14,915 nucleotides of DNA from IMG/VR virus record IMGVR_UViG_2537562091_000005; one strand, written 5' to 3'. The position numbers and the translations under genes were made by a program. The notes under the pieces were generated by a model, which was not told the DNA's origin, did not search any database, and saw only the letters and a program-made list of their open reading frames with translations. Positions 1,237 through 14,915 of this stretch are shown here, one piece after another; positions within the stretch are counted from its first letter, which is position 1, and the number at the start of each line of letters is the position of its first letter. Source of the DNA: a virus. Lineage: Duplodnaviria > Heunggongvirae > Uroviricota > Caudoviricetes.

Positions 1237-1237
1237 A

Positions 1238-1453
1238 TCATGAGTCTTTGATAAACTGATTTATCTTTGGATAGTTGTACCAGATAATCCCTCGTTTGCT
1301 GTCTGGCTTACCTAAAGGAGATACTCGTTTGAAGTGGAAGCCCTCCACCCAACAGTTCTGGCGGTATGCTTCAATTTGTCTGGCCCCCAGACCAGTGCGA
1401 AGCATCAGGCCGTATTCAACCATCCACTCTTCATTAAAGATTACTTGTGCCAT
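1238..1453 (-). CDS. xisR: Excisionase-like protein (XisR/YdaQ-like), 71 aa from the ATG with a Shine-Dalgarno (SD); ORF track extends to 1477
   Basis: Small ORF directly upstream of int on the same strand. The second in-frame ATG ([10 protein letters not shown]...) is preceded by GAGGTG with a 5-nt spacer, so I prefer 1453 as the start; the upstream ATG at 1477 has no SD. Position and size match an excisionase. Function is inferred from synteny and memory. Confidence 0.65.
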
Positions 1454-1531
1454 CGCATCACCTCTGGCAGGCGCCAATGTTAGACTGAAATTGACGCCCG
1501 ATGTTGATTATTCATAATCAGCTATGAAGTT

Positions 1532-1741
1532 TTAATTTGAATACAATGCAATTCTCGAGGACTGAAGTTTCTCGCAATTAAAATTTATCAGTTTTACTTT
1601 CTGCTCTCTGGAAACGCCTGCTTCTTTTTTACCTGAGAGCATTTTTTCGCATTCTGATTTCGTTAGTTTAGATTTTGAATATCTTGTCCAGTTAGTAGGA
1701 GTGCCACCTTCCTTTTCAATAGTGGCGGTAATTTTATACAT
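1532..1741 (-). CDS. ydaC: Small prophage protein (YdaC-like, 69 aa), function unknown
   Basis: Minus-strand ORF; the preferred start (MYKITATIEKEGG...) has GGAGG 5 nt upstream, and the longer 93-aa version starts without an SD. The int-xis-ydaC order matches the Rac left arm as I remember it. The symbol rests on synteny, not verified homology. Confidence 0.5.
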   Translation of the reverse strand: MYKITATIEKEGGTPTNWTRYSKSKLTKSECEKMLSGKKEAGVSREQKVKLINFNCEKLQSSRIALYSN

Positions 1742-1995
1742 GAACACCTCCATTATTATTTCCAGTGGTTCGTTTATTCCATCTTTCGAGTGCTTCTTTT
1801 TCACTTCCACCATAACCGGTTCGGGATTCGCATCCGTTACCCTGGAACGCCGTGCATTACTGGCGGCGCAGGAAGCGTTAAGTACGGCAATTGATGCGCA
1901 TGATGATGCAGTCCAAGCCGTTTACCGGAAAGCGCATTTCAGCGGCGGCGGTTCTCCTAGCGATTCTGTCGTAGTGCATTGATTGAAATTAATCG

Positions 1996-2017
1996 TACCG
2001 AACTGTTTTGTTCGGTA
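1996..2017. promoter_or_regulatory. Inverted repeat TACCGAAC-N6-GTTCGGTA upstream of the ydaW-like gene (operator or weak terminator candidate)
   Basis: Perfect 8-bp arms (1996..2003 and 2010..2017) with a 6-nt loop, seen directly. No clean U-run on either strand, so an operator or RNA structure is more likely than an intrinsic terminator. A TTGAAA -35-like hexamer lies at 1984..1989. Confidence 0.3.
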
Positions 2018-2027
2018 TCAGTTAAAT

Positions 2028-2445
2028 GTAACGCTGCGAGCGTTACAAGGTGAAAACAAATGGCTTCAAACTGGATAAAGCTCGAAGTTATTACGCCGGA
2101 TAAGCCGGAAATATTCAGGCTTGCTGAGATTCTGAATATTGATCCAGATGCCGCATTAGGGAAAGTCATTCGCTTCTGGGCATGGGCGGATCAACAAATG
2201 ATAGACGGTAACGCAGAGTGTAACGCTCGCGGCGTTACAAAAAGTGCAATAGATCGCATCACTTTTATGGCTGGTTTTGCTGATGCGTTAATTCAGGTTG
2301 GATGGCTGGTCGAAACTAATGGTGTGTTGTCGCTTCCTAACTTTGAGCGCCATAACGGGAAAAGCTCTAAAAAACGGGCGGTTACAAACGAGAGAGTAAC
2401 AAAAATACGAGAACTGAAACGAAAAGGTAACGCTGCCAGCGTTAC
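2028..2445. repeat. Dispersed family of 19-bp perfect palindromes GTAACGCT-N-AGCGTTAC, each followed by an A-run
   Basis: Seen directly: 2028..2046 GTAACGCTGCGAGCGTTAC; 2220..2238 GTAACGCTCGCGGCGTTAC (extra half-site GTAACGC at 2209..2215); 2427..2445 GTAACGCTGCCAGCGTTAC; degenerate copy GTTAC-N10-GTAAC at 2381..2400. Copy 1 ends 1 nt upstream of the SD of the ydaW-like gene (2047..2053); the others lie inside its coding sequence in the same codon phase (encoding N-A-x-x-V-T-K). Confidence 0.7.
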
Positions 2446-2563
2446 AAAAACGGATCAAAAAGCGTTATCTGCATCATCGTCTGCCTGTCATGGGCTGTTA
2501 ATCATTACCGTGATAACGCCACCGCCTACAAAGAGCAGCGCGACAAAAATGCCAGAGAACTGA
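2060..2563 (+). CDS. Phage protein, YdaW-like N-terminal fragment; last ~30 codons are out-of-frame Rz sequence (pseudogene-like fusion)
   Basis: ATG at 2060 with SD AAGGTGA 6 nt upstream. The N-terminal ~130 aa ([46 protein letters not shown]...) look like a real phage protein, possibly DNA-binding or replication-associated. From about 2461 the ORF reads through the Rz N-terminal region in another frame (ending ...[19 protein letters not shown]), which indicates a deletion fusion. Family assignment is uncertain. Confidence 0.5.
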
Positions 2564-2895
2564 AGCTGGCGAACGCGGCAATTACTGACATGCAGATGCG
2601 TCAGCGTGATGTTGCTGCGCTCGATGCAAAATACACGAAGGAGTTAGCTGATGCGAAAGCTGAAAATGATGCTCTGCGTGATGATGTTGCCGCTGGTCGT
2701 CGTCGGTTGCACATCAAAGCAGTCTGTCAGTCAGTGCGTGAAGCCACCACCGCCTCCGGCGTGGATAATGCAGCCTCCCCCCGACTGGCAGACACCGCTG
2801 AACGGGATTATTTCACCCTCCGGGAACGACTGGTAATGATGCAGGCCCAACTTGAAGGTGCTCAGCAATACATAACCGAACAGTGTTTAAAGTAA
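2464..2895 (+). pseudogene. rzpR: Rz-like inner-membrane spanin gene, 5'-truncated (start and first ~12 codons lost)
   Basis: The frame open from 2431 translates to ...[102 protein letters not shown]..., which I recognise as lambda Rz from its TM segment onward. There is no start codon upstream of the TM segment; the first ATG (2590) gives a 101-aa product lacking the membrane anchor. Confidence 0.8.
2651..2836 (+). CDS. rzoR: Rz1-like outer-membrane lipoprotein spanin (o-spanin), 61 aa, nested in the +1 frame of Rz
   Basis: [24 protein letters not shown]... has a signal peptide with lipobox LVVVGC and a proline-rich mature part ([15 protein letters not shown]), typical of Rz1. SD AAGGAG lies 7 nt upstream of the ATG. 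The embedded arrangement inside Rz is the classical spanin architecture. Confidence 0.85.
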
Positions 2896-2981
2896 AATCT
2901 TAACTACAATATGATTCATTTTGATGATTGTTTCATAAGGAACAGTGAAGTAAGATCTAAGAGGAGTTAAATTTTATACAG

Positions 2982-3015
2982 TATAATCATAATATTGCAG
3001 CAAGGTGGTTATAAT
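2982..3015 (+). promoter_or_regulatory. Putative promoter -10 elements upstream of trkG (TATAAT at 2982..2987 and 3010..3015)
   Basis: AT-rich intergenic region with two perfect TATAAT hexamers; no good -35 match. Pattern-based only. Confidence 0.2.
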
Positions 3016-3032
3016 TGAAAGAATATTTAGAT

Positions 3033-4490
3033 ATGAATACATCTCATGTAAGAGTTGTTACTCATATGTGTGGGTTCCTGGTTTGGCTCTATAGTCTTTC
3101 AATGTTGCCACCAATGGTTGTAGCATTGTTTTATAAAGAAAAAAGCCTGTTCGTTTTCTTTATAACTTTCGTTATATTTTTTTGTATTGGTGGCGGAGCG
3201 TGGTATACAACTAAGAAATCTGGCATTCAATTACGTACCCGTGATGGGTTTATTATAATTGTAATGTTTTGGATTTTGTTTTCTGTTATTAGTGCATTCC
3301 CTTTATGGATTGACTCAGAACTTAATTTAACGTTCATTGATGCTCTGTTTGAAGGGGTTTCTGGAATAACAACAACAGGAGCAACTGTAATTGATGATGT
3401 TAGTTCATTACCTCGGGCATATTTGTACTATCGGTCACAGTTAAATTTTATAGGTGGTTTAGGAGTTATTGTTCTGGCGGTTGCTGTATTGCCATTATTG
3501 GGTATTGGTGGTGCAAAGCTTTATCAGTCAGAAATGCCGGGGCCATTTAAGGATGACAAACTCACTCCCCGCCTGGCCGATACGTCACGGACACTGTGGA
3601 TAACTTATTCTTTATTAGGTATTGCTTGTATTGTCTGTTATAGACTTGCAGGAATGCCTTTGTTTGATGCTATTTGTCACGGGATTTCCACAGTTTCGCT
3701 TGGTGGTTTCTCAACTCATAGCGAGAGTATCGGATATTTTAATAACTATTTGGTTGAGCTGGTGGCTGGTTCTTTTTCCCTGCTATCGGCTTTCAACTTC
3801 ACTCTTTGGTATATTGTTATTAGCAGGAAAACGATAAAACCTTTAATCAGAGATATTGAACTTCGTTTCTTTCTGTTAATAGCCTTAGGGGTGATCATTG
3901 TTACCTCTTTCCAGGTCTGGCATATAGGTATGTATGACTTGCATGGAAGTTTTATTCATTCGTTTTTTCTTGCCAGCTCCATGCTCACTGATAATGGTTT
4001 AGCTACGCAGGATTATGCAAGCTGGCCCACGCACACGATAGTGTTTTTGCTGTTGTCAAGTTTCTTTGGGGGATGTATAGGTTCAACTTGTGGTGGAATT
4101 AAGTCACTTCGATTTCTTATACTTTTCAAACAAAGCAAACACGAGATAAATCAGCTTTCTCATCCCAGAGCGTTGTTGAGTGTAAATGTAGGAGGGAAGA
4201 TAGTTACAGATCGTGTAATGAGGTCTGTATGGAGTTTCTTTTTTCTTTATACTCTCTTCACGGTGTTTTTTATACTGGTGTTAAATGGTATGGGATATGA
4301 TTTTCTTACATCATTTGCAACAGTGGCTGCATGTATTAATAATATGGGATTAGGTTTTGGGGCTACTGCATCGTCATTCGGAGTGCTTAATGACATTGCA
4401 AAATATTTAATGTGCATAGCTATGATTCTTGGTCGCCTTGAAATTTATCCTGTTATTATATTGTTTTCAGGTTTTTTTTGGCGCTCCTAA
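3033..4490 (+). CDS. trkG: Trk-system potassium uptake membrane protein TrkG (prophage-encoded moron), 485 aa
   Basis: Polytopic membrane protein (MNTSHVRVVTHMCGFLVWLYSLSMLPPMVVALFYKEK...) with repeated glycine-rich selectivity-filter-like motifs typical of TrkH/TrkG; recognised as Rac TrkG. Markedly AT-rich relative to neighbours. Start ambiguity: ATG 3033 has no SD, whereas in-frame TTG 3015 is preceded by AAGGTGG at a 6-nt spacing. Confidence 0.9.
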   Translation: MNTSHVRVVTHMCGFLVWLYSLSMLPPMVVALFYKEKSLFVFFITFVIFFCIGGGAWYTTKKSGIQLRTRDGFIIIVMFWILFSVISAFPLWIDSELNLTFIDALFEGVSGITTTGATVIDDVSSLPRAYLYYRSQLNFIGGLGVIVLAVAVLPLLGIGGAKLYQSEMPGPFKDDKLTPRLADTSRTLWITYSLLGIACIVCYRLAGMPLFDAICHGISTVSLGGFSTHSESIGYFNNYLVELVAGSFSLLSAFNFTLWYIVISRKTIKPLIRDIELRFFLLIALGVIIVTSFQVWHIGMYDLHGSFIHSFFLASSMLTDNGLATQDYASWPTHTIVFLLLSSFFGGCIGSTCGGIKSLRFLILFKQSKHEINQLSHPRALLSVNVGGKIVTDRVMRSVWSFFFLYTLFTVFFILVLNGMGYDFLTSFATVAACINNMGLGFGATASSFGVLNDIAKYLMCIAMILGRLEIYPVIILFSGFFWRS

Positions 4491-4576
4491 TATATGGCTG
4501 ATTTATAATTGTGAGTTTAATATTATGTTGACTCACTCATTGATCCAATACCTAACTTTACCAGCAACACCTCCGC

Positions 4577-4610
4577 CCCCAGTAGCACTGGCTGCTGGGG
4601 TGCGTTTTAT
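4577..4610 (+). terminator. Possible intrinsic terminator downstream of trkG
   Basis: CCCCAG (4577..4582) pairs with CTGGGG (4595..4600) around a 12-nt loop, followed by TGCGTTTTATT. The long loop makes it a weak candidate. Confidence 0.3.
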
Positions 4611-4627
4611 TCATAAAGCAAGGATGT

Positions 4628-5419
4628 ATGAGCGAGAAATTAAAGATAGTCTATCGCCCATTACAAGAATTGTCACCGTATGCGCACAACGCCAGGACGC
4701 ACAGCCCTGAGCAGGTGGCACAACTGGTAGAAAGTATTAAGCAATTCGGCTGGACTAATCCGGTGCTGATTGACGAAAAGGGCGAAATTATTGCGGGTCA
4801 CGGTCGTGTTATGGCGGCTGAAATGCTCAAAATGGATTCTGTTCCGGTCATTGTTCTGTCTGGCCTGACGGATGAGCAGAAAAAGGCGTACCGCCTGGCA
4901 GATAATCGCCTGCCGATGAATGCTGGCTGGGATGAAGATCTGTTGCGGATGGAGCTGTCGGACCTAATCAATGCTGATTTTGATGTCTCCCTGACAGGCT
5001 TCATCCCGACAGAAATTGATGAACTGTTGACGGATGTTTTGCCCGGTACAGGAAATGAGGAGGAGCCGTATACGACGAAAATTGATACGCCTGTTTATGA
5101 GCCGTCGGGCGGTAAACCGGATATCAGTGAACTGTACGACGATACGAAAACGCAGGAGCTGATCAGCCGGATACGTTCGGCTTCCCTTGAGCCTGATATT
5201 GAGAAATTCCTCCTGTGTGCGGCAGAACGTCACACGGTGTTTAATTTCAGCAGAATTGCGGACTATTACGCTCACGCCCCCGCTGAAATTCAGTGTTTTT
5301 TCGAGGAGTCGGCGCTGGTGATCATTGATTATCAGCAGGCTATTGAAAATGGATTTGTCCGGATGACGCAGCGCATGGTGGAGATCATGCATGGTGGTGA
5401 GGAGGAGGAATATGCGTGA
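4628..5419 (+). CDS. ParB-like nuclease N-terminal domain protein (ParB/Srx superfamily), 263 aa
   Basis: N-terminal region IVYRPLQELSPYAHNARTHSPEQVAQLVESIKQFGWTNPVLIDEKGEIIAGHGRVMAA fits the ParB N-terminal fold (conserved NAR..S and GHGR motifs), followed by an acidic C-terminal extension. AGGA lies 3 nt upstream of the ATG. No methyltransferase motifs are visible. Confidence 0.7.
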   Translation: MSEKLKIVYRPLQELSPYAHNARTHSPEQVAQLVESIKQFGWTNPVLIDEKGEIIAGHGRVMAAEMLKMDSVPVIVLSGLTDEQKKAYRLADNRLPMNAGWDEDLLRMELSDLINADFDVSLTGFIPTEIDELLTDVLPGTGNEEEPYTTKIDTPVYEPSGGKPDISELYDDTKTQELISRIRSASLEPDIEKFLLCAAERHTVFNFSRIADYYAHAPAEIQCFFEESALVIIDYQQAIENGFVRMTQRMVEIMHGGEEEEYA

Positions 5420-5498
5420 TGATTTTTGCGCCTTTATTCTGACTCACGGGCGACCGGACAAAGTTCTGACTTACCGAACGTTGCGTCGTGCTGGCTAG
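5412..5498 (+). pseudogene. 28-codon gene stub (MRDDFCAFILTHGRPDKVLTYRTLRRAG) with strong SD, likely remnant 5' end of a deleted or frameshifted gene
   Basis: ATG at 5412 is preceded by GGAGGAGGAA and overlaps the ParB-like stop (5417..5419), a coupled arrangement. It stops after 28 codons at TAG 5496..5498. The long capsid ORF is in a different frame. Confidence 0.3.
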
Positions 5499-6544
5499 CA
5501 AAAAACGCAAAAGCTGACGCCGCAGCAAAAGATCAGACGGTAACCGCGCCAGTTGCGCCTGAGGCGAAAACCGAAGATATCGTACCGGGGCCGTCAGCTC
5601 CGAATACCGGTGATCAAAATATTGGCACTGTTGATGTGAAAATTACTAAATCCAAAATGGCACCGGTTAAATGGAATGGTGAAGAACAACTGGCTCTTGG
5701 CCCTTCAGGGACTTACAACACCATTCTGGCTGATCAGTTTAAGCAGGCTTTTCGCGCCCTTGCAAACGAGGTTGAGGCTGATCTTGGTGCGTTGTATTTC
5801 GGTGCTTCCCGCGCCGTGGGAACCGCAGGGACAACGCCGTTTGGTGTTAAAGATGATCTTTCTGATGCTGCTCTGGCTCGTCAGGTTCTGGAGGATAACG
5901 GCGCACCGACAACCGATCTGCAGATGGTGCTTGGCTCCAGTGCCATTGCTAATTTGCGCGGAAAACAGTCTGTACTGTTTAAAGTGAATGAATCCGGCAC
6001 TGAACAGCTACTGCGTGAGGGCGTGTTGGGGCGTCTGGAGGGATTCAATATTCACAGTTCGGCAGGTGTAAAACGAGCGCCAAAGGTTGCTGCAACTGGT
6101 TATCTCGTGAATGGCGAGAAAAAAGAAGGCGATGTTCTTATTTCCATTGATACTGGTTCGGGGAGTATTTCTGCAGGTCAGATTGTTACGTTCGCTGGCG
6201 ATCCGAATCAGTATGTTGTGGCAGCAGCGACCAGCAATCTGATTACTCTTGCAGCGCCCGGACTGCGTCAGGATCTGGCCGATGATACTGCAATCACAGT
6301 TGTTGGCTCCTTTACTGCAAATATGGCGTTTGATCGCAACGCGTTTCTGCTGGCATCCCGTACTCCGGCAATGCCGGAAGGTGGCGATAATGCTGATGAT
6401 GTAATGAATGTTACGGACCCGATTTCAGGGATTACGTTCCAGATTGCACTGTATCGTCAGTATCGCCAGGTGCGCTATGAAGTTGGACTGGCATGGGGTG
6501 TTTCATCAGTGAAGCCGGCACATGGTTGTCTGATTCTTGGTTAA
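5426..6544 (+). CDS. Phage major capsid protein, P22-coat-like family; 5' end appears damaged (no ATG or SD in frame until codon 78)
   Basis: 372-codon frame with segments resembling P22 coat protein from memory (FRALANEVEADLG vs P22 ARKLANNVELKVA; GQIVTFAGD insertion-domain-like region; C-terminal GLAWGVSS). The frame opens at 5423 after a TGA; the only early starts are TTG 5426 (17 nt from the SD) and unsupported GTG 5636 and ATG 5657. Probably a pseudogene or frameshifted gene. Confidence 0.5.
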   Translation: MRLYSDSRATGQSSDLPNVASCWLAKNAKADAAAKDQTVTAPVAPEAKTEDIVPGPSAPNTGDQNIGTVDVKITKSKMAPVKWNGEEQLALGPSGTYNTILADQFKQAFRALANEVEADLGALYFGASRAVGTAGTTPFGVKDDLSDAALARQVLEDNGAPTTDLQMVLGSSAIANLRGKQSVLFKVNESGTEQLLREGVLGRLEGFNIHSSAGVKRAPKVAATGYLVNGEKKEGDVLISIDTGSGSISAGQIVTFAGDPNQYVVAAATSNLITLAAPGLRQDLADDTAITVVGSFTANMAFDRNAFLLASRTPAMPEGGDNADDVMNVTDPISGITFQIALYRQYRQVRYEVGLAWGVSSVKPAHGCLILG

Positions 6545-6766: not shown

Positions 6767-7162
6767 ATGATCACTTACGTGACCTGTGATGACGTTGATA
6801 ATGCGTTTGGGAACGCCTGGACGAGTGAGAACGCTAAAAATAAAGCTGTTTTAATGGCTAATGCCTGGCTTAATGGCTTCAACCTGAAAATTAACCCATC
6901 CCGTATTCCGGAAGAGGTAAAACTTGCGGGAGCATATGCAGCCAGAATTGCCTCATTCGGTAAGTTGTTTCAGCAGAAAAATGATTCTGGCGTTGTTATC
7001 AGTAAAGCCGTGTCGGCTGACGGGGTCAGTGTATCGAAATCATTTGCTGAGTTGCCATCAAACAGCACTGTATTGCTTGAACCCGATTTACAGCTTGCGA
7101 TAGCACTGCTGAAACCGTACGGACTTAGTCGCTCACAAGTCAGGGTTGTGAGGGGGGGATAA
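6767..7162 (+). CDS. Putative head-tail connector / head completion protein (gp6-like), 131 aa
   Basis: Compact ORF following the capsid gene; assignment rests on position in the head-completion cassette and size, with no confident motif. Confidence 0.45.
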   Translation: MITYVTCDDVDNAFGNAWTSENAKNKAVLMANAWLNGFNLKINPSRIPEEVKLAGAYAARIASFGKLFQQKNDSGVVISKAVSADGVSVSKSFAELPSNSTVLLEPDLQLAIALLKPYGLSRSQVRVVRGG

Positions 7163-7545
7163 TGGGGCTTCGTGAAGAGATTCAGTCAGAGGTTGCCGCT
7201 GCTTTTGATGAGGATTTAGCGGACGCCGTGAGTGATTTTTCTGGTTCTTACGTTACGCACCGGCACTGGGATCCTGTGACGGAAACTGGCGGCGAATCCA
7301 CCGCAATCTATACCGGGCGAGGCGTGTTGACACGTTATAAGCTGGGCAGAATTGATGGGATTAATATTTTGCATGGTGACCTTAAATTAACCGCTCTGGT
7401 ATGCGAGGTTACGGATAAACCAGCTGTCGACCATATTATTGAGATTTATGATCCTGTATCAAGGCAGTTACAACGATACGAGGTAATTACAGCAAGTGTA
7501 GATCCTTCCGCATCAGTTTACTCTATCCAGTTAAGGAGAGCGTAA
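7162..7545 (+). CDS. Putative head-tail joining / head closure protein, 127 aa
   Basis: Start overlaps the upstream stop (TAATG) with a G-rich SD (AGGGGGGGA). Function assigned from position and size only. Confidence 0.45.
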   Translation: MGLREEIQSEVAAAFDEDLADAVSDFSGSYVTHRHWDPVTETGGESTAIYTGRGVLTRYKLGRIDGINILHGDLKLTALVCEVTDKPAVDHIIEIYDPVSRQLQRYEVITASVDPSASVYSIQLRRA

Positions 7546-7926
7546 ATGGCAAAGGCATGGGATATAGAACCGTCAATATTTGCCGGGATGATTGAGGAAG
7601 ATGTAGGGCTGAAGATTCGCTACATCGCTATTCAGATTCTTACTGCTATTGATATTGCTGCTCCGGTTGATACCGGACGTTTCAGAAATAACAACCTGGT
7701 GTCGTTACAGCATCCCGATTTTGGTATATCTGATAACGTGGATCCGAACGGTACGATTGCTGTTCAGCGTGGGATCGGGGTTATTTCGAAAGCTGCAAAT
7801 TACGGAGTTATTTATATCCAGAATAACCTTCCTTATGCAGAGACTCTTGAAAACGGTCATTCACAACAAGCGCCAACTGGCGTGTATGCCAACGCTTTTC
7901 ATGGTGTTTTACAGGCTTACAAATGA
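7546..7926 (+). CDS. HK97 gp10-like neck / tail-completion protein, 126 aa
   Basis: Contains PVDTGRFRNN and LPYAETLENG, resembling the gp10-family signature (DTG..R ... YA..vE.G) from memory. Starts immediately after the upstream stop. Confidence 0.6.
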   Translation: MAKAWDIEPSIFAGMIEEDVGLKIRYIAIQILTAIDIAAPVDTGRFRNNNLVSLQHPDFGISDNVDPNGTIAVQRGIGVISKAANYGVIYIQNNLPYAETLENGHSQQAPTGVYANAFHGVLQAYK

Positions 7927-8360
7927 CGTTTACTGAAATCAGAAATACGGTTATTTCCAGAATGACGGCACAGACGATTATTGATGGAAAAGACGTATTG
8001 TATCCGAACGCGCCAACGTTCGATCCTTCCGGTAAGTTAATCTGGGCGCGGTTAAGTAATATTCCCGGGCAGGCTGGAGTTAATGAAATTGGCGCGGGGC
8101 CGATTGTTTATCGCACGGGGATAATCATTATTCAGTTATTTGTCCCCGCAGGTTCTGGTTCAAAACTCATTACTGAGACAGCCGATAAATTGCGGGAACT
8201 GTTTGAGTTTCAGGATGACGATCGTCTCAGTTACCAGGCTGTTTCCTCAACCAGCCAGACTACTGCGGACAGAATAACAGCACATAATTTACGCATAATT
8301 ACCTCTCGCTTTTCTGCAATAAAAAAGGCGCCATTTCTGGCGCCCGTATCTGGGTTATAA
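7923..8360 (+). CDS. Putative tail terminator / neck protein, 145 aa; 3' end runs through an opposite-strand terminator (possibly chimeric C-terminus)
   Basis: ATGA overlap with the upstream gene. The last ~15 codons (…SAIKKAPFLAPVSGL) are encoded by the hairpin that serves as terminator of the convergent J fragment, so the C-terminus may derive from a rearrangement joint. Confidence 0.45.
   Translation: MTFTEIRNTVISRMTAQTIIDGKDVLYPNAPTFDPSGKLIWARLSNIPGQAGVNEIGAGPIVYRTGIIIIQLFVPAGSGSKLITETADKLRELFEFQDDDRLSYQAVSSTSQTTADRITAHNLRIITSRFSAIKKAPFLAPVSGL
8320..8344 (-). terminator. Intrinsic terminator for the minus-strand J fragment
   Basis: On the minus strand: GGCGCCA, GAAA loop, TGGCGCC, then TTTTTTATT, beginning about 20 nt past the J stop (stem at plus 8327..8333 and 8338..8344; A-run 8321..8326). 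Confidence 0.6.
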
Positions 8361-8363
8361 AAT

Positions 8364-10925
8364 TCAGCTAATCGTGATGCCTGCAGTGGCTTTCTTCATC
8401 ACAACAACCAGCAAATCGCTGATACTTGCTGTGGGATACCAACCATTTACCCACCATGCTGATACAGAAAACTCCAGTGTCATTACGCCACTGCCTGCTG
8501 GCATATCAATAACACCCGTGTAAATCAGAGTATTATCCAGAGCCGTTCGGTTATAAATTTCAGCCCCGTTTTTCTTCACTATCAGGCGGCATGACGAATA
8601 AGTATCGCTATTCTCCCGCTCATGTCTGGCACCGCTGAAAGCCACCGCTGGAATAACAATTTGCCGGTCAAACGGCTGATCGTCATAAACCCTGACGGTA
8701 ATGGTCCCTGATGGCCACCGCTCCGGTGCACGGGAGTCCCGGGGGAAAGCTTTGCCCACTGTTTTAACGAGATCGCCTTCAATCTGGTTCGCGGACAGTT
8801 TTCCCAGAACCCGACAGTTCTCGTTAATCGTGACGTTGTTGAGCGTCCCGGAGTTCGCATTCACGCTACCGCTGATATCGGCATTTTTCGCCGTCAGCCG
8901 CCCGTCCGGTGTCAGGGAAAATGCCGGAGGATTACCGCCGCTGGTAATGGTCGGAGCCGTCAGGCGTTTCAGGAACACGTCGTTCATGAATATCTGATCG
9001 CCCTGACCAACAAACATTGGTCTTGTGTTGCCATTAGACGGATCAATAAACGCGATACGGTTAGCGGCAACCAGGAACTGGCTCAGTTTGCCTTCCTCCG
9101 TATCCTCCATGCTGAGGCCAAGCCCCGCGACATAATGCCTGCCGTCTTCGGTCTGCTCAATTTTGACGCCCCACATGGCATTCCATTTATCGTTGGCGTC
9201 TTTCCACTCTTTCGAAAACTCCTCCAGTTTGCTGGCGTTATCCTCCGTCAGCTCGACTTTTTCCAGCAGCTCATTGCCGAGATGGGATTCGGTTATCTGG
9301 CCTTTGAAAAAATCCAGGTAACCTTCCGCATCATCGCTCGCCCGACCAACAGCCTCCACGAATGCCGATTTGCCGACGGTGTTCACACTGCGGATATAAA
9401 AGTAATAATCACGGCCCGGTTTGATATTGGTACTGGCGGCTATCCAGTACAGCGCCGTGCCAAGATAGCGGGCTGTGGTTTCAACCTGTCTGATATCAGC
9501 AACCCGCTTTTCCGAGAACCAGAACTCAAACTGTACCGTCGGATCATAAACGGCAAGATACGGCGTGGCGGTTATCTGAAAATAGCCCGGCGTCAGCTCA
9601 ATCCGCGACGGTGCTGCCGGTGCGGCAATCCGGAACGATACCGATGCCGGATCGCCCTGCTGTCCCCACGCATTTGCCGCCCGGACTGTCAGCCTGTAGT
9701 TCCCCAGCGCCAGCTGCCTGAAGCGGTATGTGTTTTCCGTCGTCCTGGCCGTGCTGACCAGCCGCTCACTGCCGTCGTCCGCTGCCACGGTCAGGCGAAG
9801 CATAAAGCTCACCCCCTTCACCACCTTCGGCGTGTCCCAGCGCGCCAGCACCTGATATTCCCCGCTGTCTGCGGTGACTTCGGCAGTCAGGTGCTGCACT
9901 GCTGGCGGCGTGACACCATTCACCGTGCCGCTCTGGTCGCCGTCAAAGTGCGCCCCGTTATCCACGATGGCTTCTTTTTCCGGTACATGCTGCACGGCGG
10001 TGATGGCATACGTGCCGTCGTCGTTCTCACGGATACTCACGCAGCGGAACAGGCGCTGGCGCAGCGTCGGCAGCTTCAGCCCCCACACGCTGTATCCGGC
10101 AACGCCGTCAGGAACACGACTCACTTTTACCTTCACGCCGTCGGTGACGGACTGGACCTCCACGCTGACCGGATTGCCACTTCCGTCAACCAGGCTTATC
10201 AGCGTGGTACCGGAGGATGGCAGCGTGATTTCACGGTCGAGCGTCAGCGTCCGGGTCTGGCTGTTCACCGCCAGCACGCGCCCGCCGATGCTGATACCCG
10301 CATAGTCATCATCGCAGATTTCAATGACATCCCCCGGTACATGGCGAAGCCCTTCTGCGCCCACGCTGAAGTCCACGGTCTGCGTTTCCAGCAGCTCCGT
10401 TTTAATCAGCCACAGCCCGGCGCGGTGTGCCTGCCCCCGACTGGTACAGCCAAAGGCATCCATCTTCGTGACGTTACGGCCGTAACGGGCAATGGCCTGC
10501 GTATCCTCCACGAGCTCTGTCGCCGTCTCCCAGCCGTTATCCGGGTCAATCCAGTTCACCTCAACGGCATTATGGCGGTCCTTCAGGGCGCTGAAGCTGT
10601 AGCGGAACGGCGCGCCATCATCCGGCATCACCACATTACTGCGGTTATAGGTCCACACCTTATCCGACGGTCGGTCCTGCACGAACGTCAGCGTCTGCCC
10701 GTTCCATACCGGCATACAGCGCATCGCCGAGCAGAAATCACTGAGCACATCCCACGCCTTGCGCTGTGTGGTCAGCCAGGCATTACAGGTAATGCGCGGC
10801 TCCGTGCCGCCAAAGCCGTCCGGCACTGACTGGTCGCAGTACTGGCCGATGACATACAGCGCCCATTTGTCCACATCCGCCGCACCAAGACGTTTCCCCA
10901 TGCCGTAGCGCGGGTGGGTCAGCAT
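8364..10925 (-). pseudogene. Lambda J-like host-specificity / tail-tip protein, N-terminally truncated and inverted relative to lom and stf
   Basis: From [50 protein letters not shown]... to the C-terminus the translation closely matches lambda gpJ as I recall it, including FN3-like repeats and the C-terminal receptor-binding region. About 280 N-terminal residues of a ~1130-aa J are absent. The ORF-track extension to 11030 (GTG start, 35 non-J codons) is antisense to lom and has no SD. Confidence 0.8.
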
Positions 10926-11171
10926 ATGGCTTACAGCCGAGTGTCGACCTTCTCCGGGGATTATCTCCGCGTAACTGACAACAAGGGGAAAACGCACGAT
11001 GTGCTGACCGGAAGTGATGACGGTCGCCACAGCAATACGTCTCTGGCGTGGGGGGCTGGCGTGCAGTTTAACCCGACCGAATCCGTGGCCATTGATATTG
11101 CTTATGAAGGCTCCGGCAGTGGTGACTGGCGCACTGACGGTTTCATCGTGGGTGTCGGTTATAAATTCTGA
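10926..11171 (+). pseudogene. lom (Ail/Lom family outer-membrane protein) 3' fragment, last ~81 codons only
   Basis: C-terminus ...[43 protein letters not shown] matches the Lom/Ail beta-barrel C-terminus with terminal Phe. The signal peptide and N-terminal two-thirds are missing. Confidence 0.8.
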
Positions 11172-11197
11172 TTAGCCAGGTAACACAGTGTTATGAC

Positions 11198-11226
11198 AGC
11201 CCGCCGGTTCAGGCGGGCTTTTTTGT
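11198..11226 (+). terminator. Intrinsic terminator downstream of the lom fragment
   Basis: AGCCCGCC (11198..11205), GGTTCA loop, GGCGGGCT (11212..11219), then TTTTTTG. Confidence 0.65.
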
Positions 11227-11235
11227 GGAGTGGAT

Positions 11236-13587
11236 ATGGCAGCAGTAAAAATCTCAGGTGTGCTGAAAGATGGTGCGGGAAAACCAATACAGAACTGCAC
11301 TATTCAACTGAAGGCAAAGCGTAACAGCACCACGGTACTGGTGAACACGGTGGCCTCTGAAAATCCGGATGAAGCCGGGCGTTACAGCATGGATGTTGAG
11401 TATGGCCAGTACAGTGTCATCCTGCTGGTTGAAGGTTTTCCGCCTTCACATGCCGGGACCATTACCGTCTATGAAGGTTCCAGACCAGGTACGCTGAATG
11501 ATTTTCTTGGTGCCATGACGGAGGATGATGCCCGTCCGGAGGCACTGCGCCGTTTTGAACTGATGGTGGAAGAAGCAGCACGCAACGCTGAAGCCGCCTC
11601 TCAGAGCGCAGCGGCGGCAAAGAAATCCGAAACTGCAGCGGCATCATCGAAGAACGCGGCGAAAACCTCAGAAACGAATGCAGCTAATAGTGCACAGGCG
11701 GCAGCGACCTCACAGACTGCATCAGCAAACTCCGCGACAGCAGCCAAAAAATCAGAAACCAACGCGAAAAACAGCGAGACAGCCGCAAAGACGAGCGAAA
11801 CCAACGCAAAGTCCAGCCAGACGGCAGCGAAAACCAGCGAAACGAATGCCAAAGCCAGTGAAACTGCGGCAAAAAACAGCCAGGTTGCGGCAGCCGGTTC
11901 TGCGACTTCAGCAGCTGGATCAGCAACTGCTGCGGCTAACAGCCAGAAAGCTGCGAAGACGAGTGAAACTAACGCAAAGTCCAGCCAGACGGCAGCGAAG
12001 ACCAGCGAAACGAATGCCAAAGCCAGCGAAACTGCGGCGAAAAACAGCCAGGATGCAGCAGCCCAAAGCGAGAGTGCCGCAGCTGGTTCTGCAAGTGCGG
12101 CGGCTTCTTCTGCCACTGCATCAGCCAACAGTCAAAAAGCAGCAAAAACCAGTGAAACCAACACAAAGGCGAGCGAGACTGCGGCGACTAACTCGGCGAA
12201 AGCATCCGCTGCAAGCCAGATGGCTGCAAAAGCAAGTGAAGACGCAGCCAGAGAGTATGCAAGCCAGGCAGCAGAGCCGTATAAATATGTCTTACAGCCA
12301 CTGCCTGATGTGTGGATACCGTTTAATGACTCGATGGATATGATTACAGGATTTGGCCCGGGATATAAAAAAATAACAGTGCGCGATGATGTGGTCACTA
12401 TACCATCCGACAAAATTGTCCCGTTTTCCCGCGCGAGTTCCGCGACCTATATCAATAAGTCCGGCGCTCTTACCATTGCAGAAATTAATGAGCCACGTTT
12501 TGAAAAAGAAGGGCTGTTAATTGAAGGGCAGAGAACAAATTACTTCACAAACTCAAACGCTCCGGAATTGTGGAATAAAAATCCAGGCCTGAAGATAAGC
12601 GAGACAAAAACCGATTCCAGGGGTTTTAAATATGCAACGTTTACCCCAGAAAAATATTTAGATAGTTCTGGCTCATATGGAATTATATCAGGGGCAGCAG
12701 CAAATAAGATAGCGGTAGTCAAAAATGATGCAGTTACAATATCCTTTAGAGCAAAAGGGGATAATGTAAGATTTGCGGCTAGATTTGATAAAGGGGATTC
12801 GCCAGTTGCTGTAGCTGCCATTTTTATTGATAGCGCCACACTAGATACATTCACGTCTGGAGCAGATGCGTCTAATATTGCTGTGAAAAATGTTGTTCGT
12901 GACGGTGAGTGGGTTGCTGTAGAGGCTGTTTATAAAGTAACAGACGACTCTACATATATTAACGGCGCCATTCTGATGTCAAACAAACTGGGTGCTAATT
13001 TTGATAAGACTAGTTTTATGGATGTAACCACCCCTCAAATAGAGCTAGGTTCTTGCTTATCATCATTTATTGTCACTCCAGGTGTTCCTGCGACAAGGGC
13101 GAGTGATATGGTTATTTTTTCAACCAGAAATAACATAAGTTCTGTCCCTTTAAGCTGTCTTGTTGAAATACATAAAAATTGGGACTCTACGCCAAATCAG
13201 GCCCCACGAATTTTAACCACTATTGGCGTGGCGACTAATGATGAACAACTGGTATTGGCTTTCAGGACGCCTACAAGTCCGGATGTAGAACCTTTACCTT
13301 ATGTTCAGTTTGGAGTGAGATCTGCATATCTTAGTCCATCTGTGAAGGCCGGGCGCAAAATGATTGCTGGTTTTGTCTGTAATAGCTCGACTGAATTTCG
13401 TTGCTGTTGTAATGGTTACCTGTCACCTGTTCAGACTTCGTCATGGAAGAATACCGGAGCTGCACATGAAATACGTATTGGGGGAACTTCTGCTGGAGGA
13501 GAACGTCACTTGTTTGGTCACGTTCGTAACCTGAGAATATGGCATAAAGAATTAACTGATGCGCAAATGGGGGAGAGTATTAAATGA
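11236..13587 (+). CDS. Side tail fibre protein, mosaic: lambda-Stf-like N-terminus, Ala/Ser/Thr tandem-repeat shaft, divergent C-terminal region with possible lectin-like (LamG/concanavalin-type) end
   Basis: ATG 11236 with GGAG 5 nt upstream (ORF track starts at in-frame GTG 11230). The N-terminal ~115 aa (MAAVKISGVLKDGAGKPIQNCTIQLKAKRNSTTVLVNTV...) match the lambda Stf N-terminus from memory. Residues ~120-330 are KTSETNAK-type repeats. The C-terminal ~450 aa are low-GC and end ...GERHLFGHVRNLRIWHKELTDAQMGESIK, reminiscent of LamG-like domain termini; no His-rich GxHxH motifs. Confidence 0.8.
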   Translation: MAAVKISGVLKDGAGKPIQNCTIQLKAKRNSTTVLVNTVASENPDEAGRYSMDVEYGQYSVILLVEGFPPSHAGTITVYEGSRPGTLNDFLGAMTEDDARPEALRRFELMVEEAARNAEAASQSAAAAKKSETAAASSKNAAKTSETNAANSAQAAATSQTASANSATAAKKSETNAKNSETAAKTSETNAKSSQTAAKTSETNAKASETAAKNSQVAAAGSATSAAGSATAAANSQKAAKTSETNAKSSQTAAKTSETNAKASETAAKNSQDAAAQSESAAAGSASAAASSATASANSQKAAKTSETNTKASETAATNSAKASAASQMAAKASEDAAREYASQAAEPYKYVLQPLPDVWIPFNDSMDMITGFGPGYKKITVRDDVVTIPSDKIVPFSRASSATYINKSGALTIAEINEPRFEKEGLLIEGQRTNYFTNSNAPELWNKNPGLKISETKTDSRGFKYATFTPEKYLDSSGSYGIISGAAANKIAVVKNDAVTISFRAKGDNVRFAARFDKGDSPVAVAAIFIDSATLDTFTSGADASNIAVKNVVRDGEWVAVEAVYKVTDDSTYINGAILMSNKLGANFDKTSFMDVTTPQIELGSCLSSFIVTPGVPATRASDMVIFSTRNNISSVPLSCLVEIHKNWDSTPNQAPRILTTIGVATNDEQLVLAFRTPTSPDVEPLPYVQFGVRSAYLSPSVKAGRKMIAGFVCNSSTEFRCCCNGYLSPVQTSSWKNTGAAHEIRIGGTSAGGERHLFGHVRNLRIWHKELTDAQMGESIK
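11590..12240 (+). repeat. In-frame tandem repeats inside stf (11-aa sub-repeats; about 100-nt near-identical copies at a 168-nt period)
   Basis: The peptide AAKTSETNAKSSQTAAKTSETNAKASETAAKNSQ occurs twice, 56 codons apart (about 11786..11885 and 11954..12053). The two copies differ by six synonymous transitions. A third partial copy follows (KAAKTSETNTKASETAA). Confidence 0.75.
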
Positions 13588-13865
13588 AAGATTTAACACT
13601 CAAATTTGCAGACAGGGCCGACTTTTCGGCCTTTATGGAGAGCATTGGCTATTATGATGACGAGTCGATGCAGGATGATATTCTTATTGACGTGATAGGT
13701 AACGTGTACAAAGAAACCGGAGAACTGACTGAAGATGGCGAACCGGTATGTGTTAAGGAAGACGGATATTTTGTAAACGTGCGCATCATTAATGATTCGC
13801 AAATATCGTCATTATTCGATGAATACGTGGTTGCTGTTGAGCATCAACTTCGTGGCTGGATGTGA
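13584..13865 (+). CDS. Small acidic hypothetical protein, 93 aa (possible fibre assembly/accessory factor by position)
   Basis: ATGA start-stop overlap with stf and SD GGGGGAGAG upstream. Acidic composition (MKDLTLKFADRADFSAFMESIGYYDDESMQDDILIDVIGNVYKETGELTEDGEPV...). No similarity to lambda Tfa that I can recognise. Confidence 0.55.
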   Translation: MKDLTLKFADRADFSAFMESIGYYDDESMQDDILIDVIGNVYKETGELTEDGEPVCVKEDGYFVNVRIINDSQISSLFDEYVVAVEHQLRGWM

Positions 13866-13874
13866 GGAAGAAAA

Positions 13875-14915
13875 ATGGCTACATCGACAGTAATTCCTGA
13901 TGACATCAAAACGCTAAAATCCGACGTTAGCAAATTAAAAAACGATCAAGGAAGCTACGCAACAAAATTATATGTAGACAGCAAAGATGAAATCGTTGGT
14001 GACTGGTCTGCTTCATGGTATCAGCAGGTATTGCCAACTAGCGGAGCTATATTTGGGAGAAAACTCCGCTCAACTCACAGGACGGCAGGTGTTGAGGATG
14101 CGTATTGCGAACTATACCTCAAAAAATGGATAGACAGTCCAGGTAACGCAATGGCGCGCCTTAACCTGAACGATAACGGGACAAACATTTGCTGGGACTT
14201 TACCAACCTTTATGGCGGTACGATGATTTTTCCCGGTGACAGCGGATACCTCAAAATGGGTAACTGCCTTATGTCATACAGCAAGCGTGGAAGTAACGCG
14301 CTTATTAAATTTGATTACACCGACACATTACAGATCAAATATGCCAATCATGGGTCAACCATGACATTAAACACACAGGGAACCGCTTATGCTGGTGTTA
14401 CTGCTCAATTGTGGGGCAACACCAGCCGTCCTGTTGTTTATGAAGTCGGTGTTGATGGTGGCGCTTATATGTTCTATGCGCAGAAAAATACCGATAACAC
14501 CTATATGTTAAGCGTTAATGGTGCATGTCATGCCACCGCATTTAACCAGCATTCCGACCGGGATCTGAAAGACAACATTCAGGTGATCGATAATGCAACC
14601 GACCGCATCCGTAAAATGAACGGCTATACATACACGCTTAAAGAAAACGGTATGCCCTATGCTGGTGTCATTGCACAGGAAGCTCTGGAAGCAATCCCAG
14701 AAGTTGTAGGTTCCGCAATGAAATATCAGGACGGTGCAAGCGGATCGGAAGGTGAAGAAGGTGAACGTTATTACACAGTAGATTATTCTGGTGTTACTGG
14801 CTTGCTTGTTCAGGTAGCCAGAGAGTCAGACGACAGAATAACAGCACTGGAAGAAGAAAACGCAGAATTAAGACAAAGATTATCTGCAATTGAGGCGGCG
14901 CTTGCGTCTAAATAA
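13875..14915 (+). CDS. Short tail fibre/tip protein with C-terminal S74-type intramolecular chaperone (autoproteolytic) domain, 346 aa
   Basis: C-terminal ~120 aa (HSDRDLKDNIQVIDNATDRIRKMNGYTYTLKENGMPYAGVIAQEALEAIPEVVGSA...VDYSGVTGLLVQVARESDDRITALEEENAELRQRLSAIEAAL) match the Peptidase_S74 chaperone signature (Ser-x4-Lys dyad, NI..I, GxIAQE, coiled-coil tail). Predicted self-cleavage at Ser227 (codon 14553..14555). SD GAGGAAG upstream of the ATG. Confidence 0.75.
   Translation: MATSTVIPDDIKTLKSDVSKLKNDQGSYATKLYVDSKDEIVGDWSASWYQQVLPTSGAIFGRKLRSTHRTAGVEDAYCELYLKKWIDSPGNAMARLNLNDNGTNICWDFTNLYGGTMIFPGDSGYLKMGNCLMSYSKRGSNALIKFDYTDTLQIKYANHGSTMTLNTQGTAYAGVTAQLWGNTSRPVVYEVGVDGGAYMFYAQKNTDNTYMLSVNGACHATAFNQHSDRDLKDNIQVIDNATDRIRKMNGYTYTLKENGMPYAGVIAQEALEAIPEVVGSAMKYQDGASGSEGEEGERYYTVDYSGVTGLLVQVARESDDRITALEEENAELRQRLSAIEAALASK

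Follow-up and report, generated by a model that had tools for sequence, protein, structure and literature searches.

What is the function of the small acidic protein encoded directly after the side tail fibre gene of this virus (Duplodnaviria; Heunggongvirae; Uroviricota; Caudoviricetes; IMG/VR record IMGVR_UViG_2537562091_000005), in the slot of a Tfa-type chaperone? The whole stretch of DNA that was analysed, referred to here as the window, is 14,915 nt long and carries three fibre-locus genes, which are called gene A, ORF B and gene C. The features needed below are listed here, one per line.

11198..11219, plus strand: GC-rich hairpin (8 pairs, 7 GC) followed by a T-run, terminator-like, 3' of the lom remnant
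11236..13587, plus strand: gene A, side tail fibre protein (PF08400 and PHROG 1419)
12301..13584, plus strand: head of gene A, ~428 aa (the ~430-aa head of the text), an RcGTA head-spike-fibre-like region plus a LamG-type beta-sandwich, ending in RHLFGHVRNLRIWHKELTDAQ
13570..13577, plus strand: Shine-Dalgarno-like GGGGAGAG within the end of gene A, 6 nt 5' of the ORF B ATG, read from the sequence
13584..13865, plus strand: ORF B, 93-aa acidic alpha/beta protein (PHROG 1361)
13864..13870, plus strand: Shine-Dalgarno-like GAGGAAG at the ORF B-gene C junction, the putative own site of gene C, likewise read from the sequence
13875..14915, plus strand: gene C, 346-aa distal fibre protein (PF13884 and PHROG 4563)
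ORF B residues, AlphaFold prediction: b1 2-8, a1 11-20, a2 27-32, b2 33-39
ORF B residues, AlphaFold prediction, continued: b3 42-48, b4 54-58, b5 62-68, a3 75-81

ORF B is a genuine conserved phage gene, far beyond a chance ORF. The coordinates and the ATGA overlap with stf given in the preliminary description were confirmed: the ATG of ORF B lies at 13584-13586 and the TGA of gene A at 13585-13587, and in 164 of 166 loci the two genes overlap by 4 nt (83 loci) or 1 nt (81 loci). The protein contains 21 D+E versus 7 K+R residues, with a net charge of -14 and a pI of 4.05; the strongly acidic composition that had been pointed out is common to all lineages (pI 4.05-4.5, including six other lineage representatives). 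Stops close both alternative reading frames in all alleles, dN/dS among the alleles compared is ~0.31, and equal length is kept in homologues as low as ~30% identity. Homologues were found in 227 protein clusters (90% identity clusters, E<=1e-3), and a search with the family profile increased this number to 491 clusters. The match to PHROG 1361 is full-length (E 2.4e-46, ORF B residues 1-93 versus profile positions 1-92 of 92). PHROG 1361 is a phage protein family without an assigned function, and in every record checked ORF B is annotated as "hypothetical protein", with one exception that reads plain "tail fibre protein".

The preliminary description placed ORF B among fibre-locus accessory genes unlike Tfa and named clear homology to an unrelated characterised family as a point that would count against this. 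No such homology was found in Pfam, NCBIfam, PADLOC, PDB, or BFVD. The Pfam scan gave no match at E<=1, so ORF B matches neither PF02413 nor Peptidase_S74 (PF13884); NCBIfam and PADLOC scans gave zero matches, and PDB sequence and profile searches found no relative (GAPDH at E 0.04 was rejected as a chance match). The BFVD structure search returned uncharacterised phage proteins and nothing else, and a second, profile-based search of a large database recovered the same close E. coli relatives with no new names or domains. When the family profile was aligned by hhalign with rV5 gp32, a bona fide Caudo_TAP reference (PF02413 match, E 9e-12), the probability was 0.3%. By these searches ORF B is unrelated to Tfa. 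Its AlphaFold model (mean pLDDT 88.4) predicts an alpha/beta fold with five strands; confidence is lower in the C-terminal tail, which ends in R-x-W-M here and in R-x-W-A in most relatives. The protein is unmentioned in the BASEL papers, the RBPseg atlas, the Eligo stf-chimera paper, and a 2025 paper on overlooked siphophage receptor-binding proteins.

The mechanical ORF of gene A starts at GTG 11230, while RefSeq uses ATG 11236 (MAAVKISG) in an identical prophage. The protein is a full-length match to the PHROG 1419 tail protein and is composed of a PF08400 tail-attachment domain (residues 5-134, E 2.4e-67), an Ala/Ser-rich repeat shaft, and the C-terminal head. Matches in the head include NCBIfam GTA_spike_fiber (E 4.7e-15), Rcc01080 of RcGTA (PDB 6TB9, E 5.7e-4), and Laminin_G_3 at residues 717-779, the last weaker than the Pfam cut-off. 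The head alone aligns, at 31-67% identity, with fibres of T1-like, Seuratvirus, T5-like, and Vequintavirus phages, and it is the fibre part common to all ORF B-carrying phage lineages. BASEL model phages of several lineages carry similar fibres; those of them that carry B are the ones whose C-terminus has been described as a lectin-like beta-sandwich head, named 'D69 lectin-like head' in the RBPseg atlas (PMC12143355). One carrier, IrisVonRoten (Bas32), depends on its lateral fibres only on O16-restored K-12 (PMC8594841). Across lineages the C-terminal 150 aa of the head have a basic pI of 8.3-9.6, as opposed to the acidic ORF B. The conserved last ~40 residues of gene A were considered as a mark of the A-B junction and discarded, since this motif is for the most part the C-terminal signature that LamG_3 domains have in general; the invariance of the head is in part this same plain signature.

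The fibre operon is probably bounded upstream by the hairpin at 11198..11219. Between the three fibre-locus genes, no site resembling a promoter or a terminator exceeded chance, and genes A, B, and C are probably co-transcribed. The intact version of the prophage has a truncated tfa pseudogene 3' of the cassette, which indicates that the cassette displaced stf-tfa; the earlier wording that ORF B stands "in place of" Tfa turns out to be literal. The portable cassette consists of the ~430-aa fibre head, ORF B, and usually a short fibre C with S74, and it occurs in lambdoid prophages, Drexlerviridae, Dhillonvirus, Queuovirinae, T5-like phages, and some Vequintavirus. The window's end-of-A/B/C stretch is matched at least partly in 1130 of 5426 complete E. 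coli genomes.

The linkage of ORF B to the head is strict. The preliminary description had named absence of the ORF from otherwise identical fibre loci as a point against its reading; a homologue is found directly behind the head in 80/80 loci retrieved via the head C-terminal motif; the loci sampled are mostly related E. coli prophages and the independent lineages number about nine, not hundreds. Among GenBank phage records, 195 contain a near-full-length head and B is detected in 183 with the window's B as query; with a Vequintavirus B as query, 161 records contain B. Distant B members with 29-32% identity likewise follow LamG-ended proteins. The head sits on unrelated N-terminal anchors (PF08400 in lambdoid phages and Seuratvirus, Tail_spike_N in Vequintavirus, unmatched N-termini in the T5-like and T1-like examples) and B accompanies it each time. 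In the phages compared, ORF B is thus tied to one ~430-aa head domain and not to stf as such: of the coupling to the stf gene described earlier, the overlap stands, and the tie to stf has to be replaced by a tie to a head carried on unrelated N-termini. The coupling is tighter on the A side, with an overlap of 1 or 4 nt versus a 9-nt gap before the next gene, which points to A rather than C.

Vequintavirus provides an allele swap. Over residues 1-1049, rV5 gp41 shares 91% identity with the CarlMeissner fibre; the rV5 allele then ends in a tip plus an S74 chaperone, with no B within 25 kb, and the CarlMeissner allele finishes with the head, followed by B. In this genus, a fibre allele that ends in S74 and lacks B alternates with a head-ended allele that has B. 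The specificity region behaves differently from B. Compared to the window, the head core of the T5-like phage T5_ev219 is 46-83% identical and that of Tritos only 17-52%, while ORF B is 36% identical in T5_ev219 and 98% in Tritos. Lambdoid and T5-like phages exchange the central specificity regions of these fibres, and B keeps 94-100% identity where the head core on its left and the gene C body on its right have been swapped. Judged from these identities, ORF B does not co-vary with the variable core, or specificity region, of the head, and any A-B contact must involve invariant head features.

Gene C was left out of the preliminary description; it is a second fibre with a chaperone domain of its own. 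It starts 9 nt 3' of ORF B, a spacing found in 157/162 loci, and is a full-length match to PHROG 4563. In the protein, the N-terminal motif MATSTVIPDDIKTLK is conserved and the body is variable, and the C-terminal part contains a Peptidase_S74 intramolecular chaperone (residues 227-278, nt 14553-14708, PF13884 E 4.8e-14). In four phage lineages the invariant residues of the motif are T3, T5, I7, P8, D10, I11, L14, and K15. Different forms of gene C replace each other, for example S74 proteins of 346 aa and 234 aa that have only the first ~32 residues in common. Stop-codon read-through (B-stop-GRK-C) was considered for the in-frame 9 nt found in most loci and rejected, because the T1-like/Seuratvirus spacing is 2 nt. 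N-termini of the C type (TxT[VN]IPxDI[TK]) follow ORF B directly in 78/78 and 9/9 IMG/VR loci and were found nowhere else. A 40-residue query from the C N-terminus detected 60 GenBank records, all T5-like or Queuovirinae-sized, i.e., in the B-carrying groups, with ORF B itself directly checked in AKFV33. B is also found without C: in Vequintavirus, at one further locus (L256), and at 20 E. coli prophage loci that form one lineage.

ORF B shares several properties with known fibre-finishing systems. Like lambda Tfa, Mu U, and P2 G (PF02413), it is small, encoded directly after a fibre gene, and co-produced with it, and it is expected to act at the C-terminal end of the fibre; the cassette has physically taken the slot of tfa, with the pseudogene remnant left behind. 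Unlike Tfa, ORF B has no sequence or profile similarity to that family, is about half its size, and has a different predicted fold. The C-terminal domains of Tfa proteins track the fibre tip, which is not the case for ORF B and the specificity region. Compared with Peptidase_S74, ORF B fills an equivalent slot, as the alternating Vequintavirus alleles show, but S74 acts in cis and self-cleaves whereas ORF B is a separate polypeptide; the S74 domain of the window sits in gene C, not B. The tandem arrangement of A and C resembles DT57C LtfA/LtfB and T4 gp34-gp37, in which the distal fibre protein probably hangs on the proximal one, and the A-B-C carriers AKFV33 and mar004NP2 have been described as having two-protein fibres of the ltfA/ltfB (ltpA/ltpB) type. 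DT57C LtfA/LtfB/LtfC was nevertheless rejected as an equivalent of A-B-C: DT57C has no B and is missing from the 60 GenBank records, its LtfA ends in S74 with no lectin head, its LtfB has been proposed to attach at a mid-fibre region, and its LtfC, a collar protein of 140 aa whose gene lies upstream, is unrelated to B. Rcc01080 of RcGTA is homologous to part of the gene A head, i.e., to the partner of B and not to B. It differs from gene A in being a single-subunit capsule-binding fibre on the capsid and not the end of a tail fibre (PMC7296036), so a trimerisation chaperone may be unnecessary for the gene A head itself. A small accessory protein is mentioned neither in the Rcc01080 paper (PMC7296036) nor in the RBPseg atlas paper (PMC12143355).

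The most likely role of ORF B, in our view, is that of an assembly partner of the head, distinct from Tfa. In its specific form, a dedicated trans-acting partner of the RcGTA-spike-fibre-like plus LamG head, the proposal is about an even call. ORF B would be co-produced with fibre protein A via translational coupling, would bind a conserved part of the head and not the variable specificity core, and would be required for a correctly assembled fibre end. Its role in trans would be similar to that of Tfa for lambda-type fibres, and to that of S74 in cis for endosialidase-type fibres. In the siphophage and lambdoid cassettes the head-B unit would be the only docking place for C, through the conserved N-terminal peptide of C, and B may stay in the virion as part of this docking site. 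In two published virion proteomes of B carriers (AKFV33 and mar004NP2) protein A was detected; these list only 4 and 8 proteins in total and are too shallow for a 10-kDa protein.

A stronger form of the docking idea makes B mainly a structural connector, a stoichiometric virion subunit on the A head that offers a socket for the N-terminal peptide of C and so builds a fibre with two receptor-binding proteins. The restriction of C-type N-termini to positions directly after B, and of the 60 GenBank records to B-carrying groups (B being directly checked in AKFV33), favours this reading, as does the constancy of B between a swapped head core and a swapped C body. The cassette also moves among unrelated tails, so the docking site for C must be inside the head-B unit. 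On the other hand, functional lytic phages (Vequintavirus) and distant members of the family have B but no C-type gene, its association with C is thus not obligatory, its coupling is with A, and A-B or B-C fusions are absent among the homologues. The R-x-W-A tail of B was considered as a C-binding element and dropped: it is conserved in distant loci lacking C and is therefore not C-specific. We regard the connector role as possible but doubtful. Equally tentative is its extension, in which B is a permanent fibre subunit that forms, with the invariant LamG edge, a universal socket with which phages of six lineages would recognise the TxTxIPxDIxxLK N-terminus of an exchangeable C and mount that C on an exchangeable A; this joint reading would describe a previously undescribed three-protein, dual-specificity side fibre.

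B might instead mask or regulate the lectin-like head, shielding its glycan-binding surface in the producing cell or until adsorption without any help in folding. This would fit the strict pairing of B with a polysaccharide-binding head type and the contrast between the strongly acidic surface of B and a basic head C-terminus; however, B does not co-vary with the variable core, presumably the glycan-binding part, and the literature searched offers no precedent, which makes a mask improbable. The preliminary description had also raised a DNA mimic, and we extended this to any other anti-defence protein or moron travelling as a passenger in the fibre operon. The small size and low pI agree with it, acidity being the sole point in favour, but in six phage lineages B always overlaps a late fibre gene at its stop codon, is gained and lost together with the fibre-head allele, and has no PADLOC match. 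Neither structural likeness to a known DNA mimic nor an early or anti-defence gene neighbourhood was found for ORF B. That alternative was set aside as very improbable.

ORF B is a conserved yet uncharacterised phage gene. Lectin-headed fibres are common, and the exchange of their specificity regions across lambdoid and T5-like phages recommends them as building blocks for engineering host range. If B is needed for the head, transplanting or expressing such fibres without the 280-bp ORF would fail; if B is also the socket for a second fibre, it would give a simple rule for building two-receptor fibres. Should the partner role hold, the B family would be a third solution for finishing a phage fibre, beside the Tfa-type and S74 intramolecular chaperones.

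ORF B, the acidic reading frame under study, starts with an ATG that overlaps the TGA stop of the 785-codon side tail fibre gene A as ATGA in the window sequence, and purine-rich GGGGAGAG lies 6 nt upstream of this start. The second, short fibre gene C starts 9 nt after B with its own GAGGAAG ahead of it. The locus encodes a fibre protein on either side of B; the preliminary description had the coordinates of B and the ATGA overlap right and overlooked the second fibre protein. The features of the window are as follows.

1-1236, minus strand: integrase
2590-2895: Rz lysis protein fragment
3015-4490: TrkH-family potassium transporter like trkG
4628-5419: ParB_N protein
5426-6544: P22-coat-like capsid protein
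11236-13587: gene A, with PF08400 prophage tail-fibre N-terminal domain, Ala/Ser-rich repeat shaft and C-terminal head
13584-13865, plus strand: ORF B, 93 codons, ATG at 13584, TGA stop at 13863-13865
13875-14915: gene C, 346-residue fibre protein with a Peptidase_S74 (S74) intramolecular chaperone domain

For the head of A (~430 residues), matches came from NCBIfam GTA_spike_fiber and from Rcc01080, the head-spike fibre of RcGTA (PDB 6TB9); a LamG-type sandwich closes the C-terminal end of the head. No promoter- or terminator-like sites above chance were found between A, B and C; a strong hairpin with a T-run lies upstream of A. Inside the shaft of A, two 126-nt direct repeats (11770-11895 and 11938-12063, ~91% identical) are likely a substrate for shaft-length change by recombination.

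E. coli F5505-C1 carries an intact lambdoid prophage in which the A-B-C stretch recurs at 100% identity; the gene order there is J, lom, A, B, C, a 97-residue membrane protein and a truncated tfa pseudogene. The pseudogene indicates that the cassette (head and B, usually with C) physically displaced the end of stf together with tfa, which supports the earlier proposal that B stands in place of a Tfa-type chaperone. The 97-residue hydrophobic protein (MDIT...) is conserved after C in intact loci and in Tritos, again followed by the truncated pseudogene (16659-17090 of the F5505-C1 locus L259, just past the window end; also L136 3097-3390), and may be a lysogenic-conversion or exclusion gene. 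When 7094-14915 of the window is compared with L259 (CP024257), a stretch of ~8.5 kb that extends from the tail tube gene and takes in the N-terminal part of J is absent. The 2.68 kb for the C-terminal part of J lies inverted, with the start of lom, at 8248-10927, ~300 bp of lom is missing, and the junctions share 3 nt. The window prophage cannot make a tail, though A, B and C are intact. A 564-codon ORF antisense to the inverted J fragment (9135-10829, plus strand) is unlikely to be a gene: its translation is rich in Arg, Pro and His, as is typical of shadow ORFs that lie across from a long gene. The region 1-6544 has the aspect of a heavily deleted Rac-type prophage.

ORF B is a real gene. 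Its match to PHROG 1361, a family of unknown function, is full-length (E 2.4e-46), and homologues form 227 protein clusters at 90% identity in a large protein collection, or 491 with the family profile, reaching down to ~30% identity without a change in length. In a set of 56 alleles of equal length dN/dS is ~0.31 and stops close the other two frames in all of them. An AlphaFold model built from a 28-sequence alignment (mean pLDDT 88.4) confidently predicts a compact alpha/beta domain of order b-a-a-b-b-b-b-a with a less ordered 12-residue C-terminal tail, which ends R-x-W-A in most relatives. The strongly acidic composition reported previously was confirmed, with 21 acidic and 7 basic residues, a net charge of -14 and a pI of 4.05. 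PHROG 1361 already catalogues the family; in the records checked B is annotated as a hypothetical protein, with one exception ('tail fibre protein'), and we found no paper discussing it.

By tblastn, B occurs in 183 GenBank phage records, which come from lambdoid phages (Tritos, 2G7b, phage 21), Drexlerviridae (KarlJaspers) and Dhillonvirus, Queuovirinae (ESCO3, VogelGryff, JenP1), T5-like Tequintavirus (IrisVonRoten, AKFV33, mar004NP2) and a subset of Vequintavirus (CarlMeissner, EmilHeitz). A lateral or side fibre gene directly precedes B in every case examined. The N-terminal anchor of these fibres is PF08400 in lambdoid phages and Seuratvirus and Tail_spike_N in Vequintavirus, and no family matched the anchors of the T5-like and T1-like examples; only the last ~430 residues, the head, are common across lineages. 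When loci were collected by the C-terminal motif of the head, B followed immediately in 80/80, so the preliminary description's counter-case, a fibre locus lacking the ORF, did not turn up. With the N-terminal motif of C (TxT[VN]IPxDI[TK]), B immediately preceded in 78/78 and, in a second, T5-centred scan, in 9/9. The stop of A overlaps the start of B by 4 nt in 83 and by 1 nt in 81 of 166 loci, and the gap to the next gene is 9 nt in 157 of 162. C is optional. In 20 E. coli prophage loci it is precisely absent and the 97-residue membrane protein directly follows B at the same 9-nt spacing; since this protein comes after C in intact loci, C was lost from the 20 (or acquired by the others). No C-type gene follows B in Vequintavirus. 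Two distant members also lack C: in one (L256) the order is J, a fibre with a LamG end, B and a umuD-like gene, and in the other (L257) B comes after a 467-residue protein consisting of hardly anything but the head. Together these loci indicate a nested dependency, in which the head always comes with B in the loci checked and C only with both. Many loci carry a 221-234-residue version of C (for example L014 6292-6996 and L003 4782-5447), which has nothing beyond the conserved motif at the N-terminus, a heptad-rich segment and the S74 domain and would leave a stub of ~115 residues after self-cleavage; BASEL annotates this version as 'putative lateral tail fiber chaperone'.

The Vequintavirus fibres present an allele swap. 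Over residues 1-1049, gp41 of phage rV5 (1272 aa) and the lateral fibre of CarlMeissner (1479 aa) share 91% identity, beyond which the two proteins differ: gp41 ends in a tip and an S74 domain with the distal tail protein gene directly next, and the B profile has no match across 25 kb of rV5, whereas the CarlMeissner fibre ends in the head, followed by B. This comparison shows a cis-acting chaperone domain exchanged for head and B as one unit. In the RBPseg atlas the MaxBurger and EmilHeitz fibres alternate likewise between S74 and 'lectin-like head D69'; its account of D69 fibres makes no mention of B.

We found no relatives of B in Pfam, NCBIfam, PADLOC or PDB sequences, and a BFVD search returned uncharacterised phage proteins only. 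An hhalign comparison of the B family profile with rV5 gp32, a bona fide Caudo_TAP protein, gave a probability of 0.3%, in agreement with the earlier remark that B does not resemble lambda Tfa. B resembles a fibre accessory protein in behaviour but fails both the sequence and the co-variation tests that define Tfa. Nor is B an S74 protein, since it lacks that domain, and the LtfA/LtfB/LtfC system of DT57C has no counterpart of it. The DNA mimic previously raised as an option has the charge as its sole point in favour and is very unlikely.

Regarding co-variation, B is 94-100% identical among E. coli prophages while the head and the body of C change around it: the window head shares ~40-43% identity with the heads of those loci, and C is either a 346- or a 234-residue S74 protein with only the first ~32 residues in common. 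The core of the window head (12301-13584) is closest to that of the T5-like phage T5_ev219 (66% overall; 46-83% per 30-residue block, versus 17-52% in the same blocks with Tritos) and distant from the alleles of other E. coli prophages (~42%), which suggests that temperate lambdoid and virulent T5-like phages have swapped head specificity regions. B of the window, however, is 98% identical to that of Tritos and 36% to that of T5_ev219, and thus tracks phage lineage rather than head allele. Judged from these alignments, the pattern is opposite to that of a specificity-matched chaperone, and any contact with the head would have to involve its invariant features. Conservation is highest across a stretch that takes in the final ~40 residues of A, the whole of B and the first 15 residues of C; the end of A is largely a generic LamG_3 signature and was discounted as independent evidence for a junction.

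The best-supported reading, held with moderate confidence, is that B would serve this type of head as a dedicated partner, produced together with it through translational coupling and required for completion of the fibre end. B would thereby do in trans what Tfa or an S74 domain does for other fibres. In all lineages the pI of B is 4.05-4.5 versus 8.3-9.6 for the last 150 head residues, a charge complementarity that weakly favours a partner role. The RcGTA fibre homologous to part of the head consists of a single subunit and binds capsule (PMC7296036), a point against a classical folding chaperone. Since the cassette moves between unrelated tails and C was never found in its absence, C would have to dock somewhere on the head-B unit. 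The main rival, or an extension of the partner reading, is that B itself is the socket for C and stays in the virion; this we regard as rather unlikely, and a pure connector role is at odds with the retention of B in functional phages without C and of its conserved tail in distant C-less loci. Published virion proteomes of two carrier phages identified just 4 and 8 proteins. ORF137, the A homologue of AKFV33 (L254 1369-3990), ran on the published virion gel at 95.8 kDa versus a calculated 83.1 kDa, an excess close to the 10.1 kDa of the B homologue ORF136, which may be anomalous migration only. As a dedicated head partner, B would represent a third type of fibre-end helper, its function deduced from context; the family is common and carried by tractable model phages, in which its role is directly testable.
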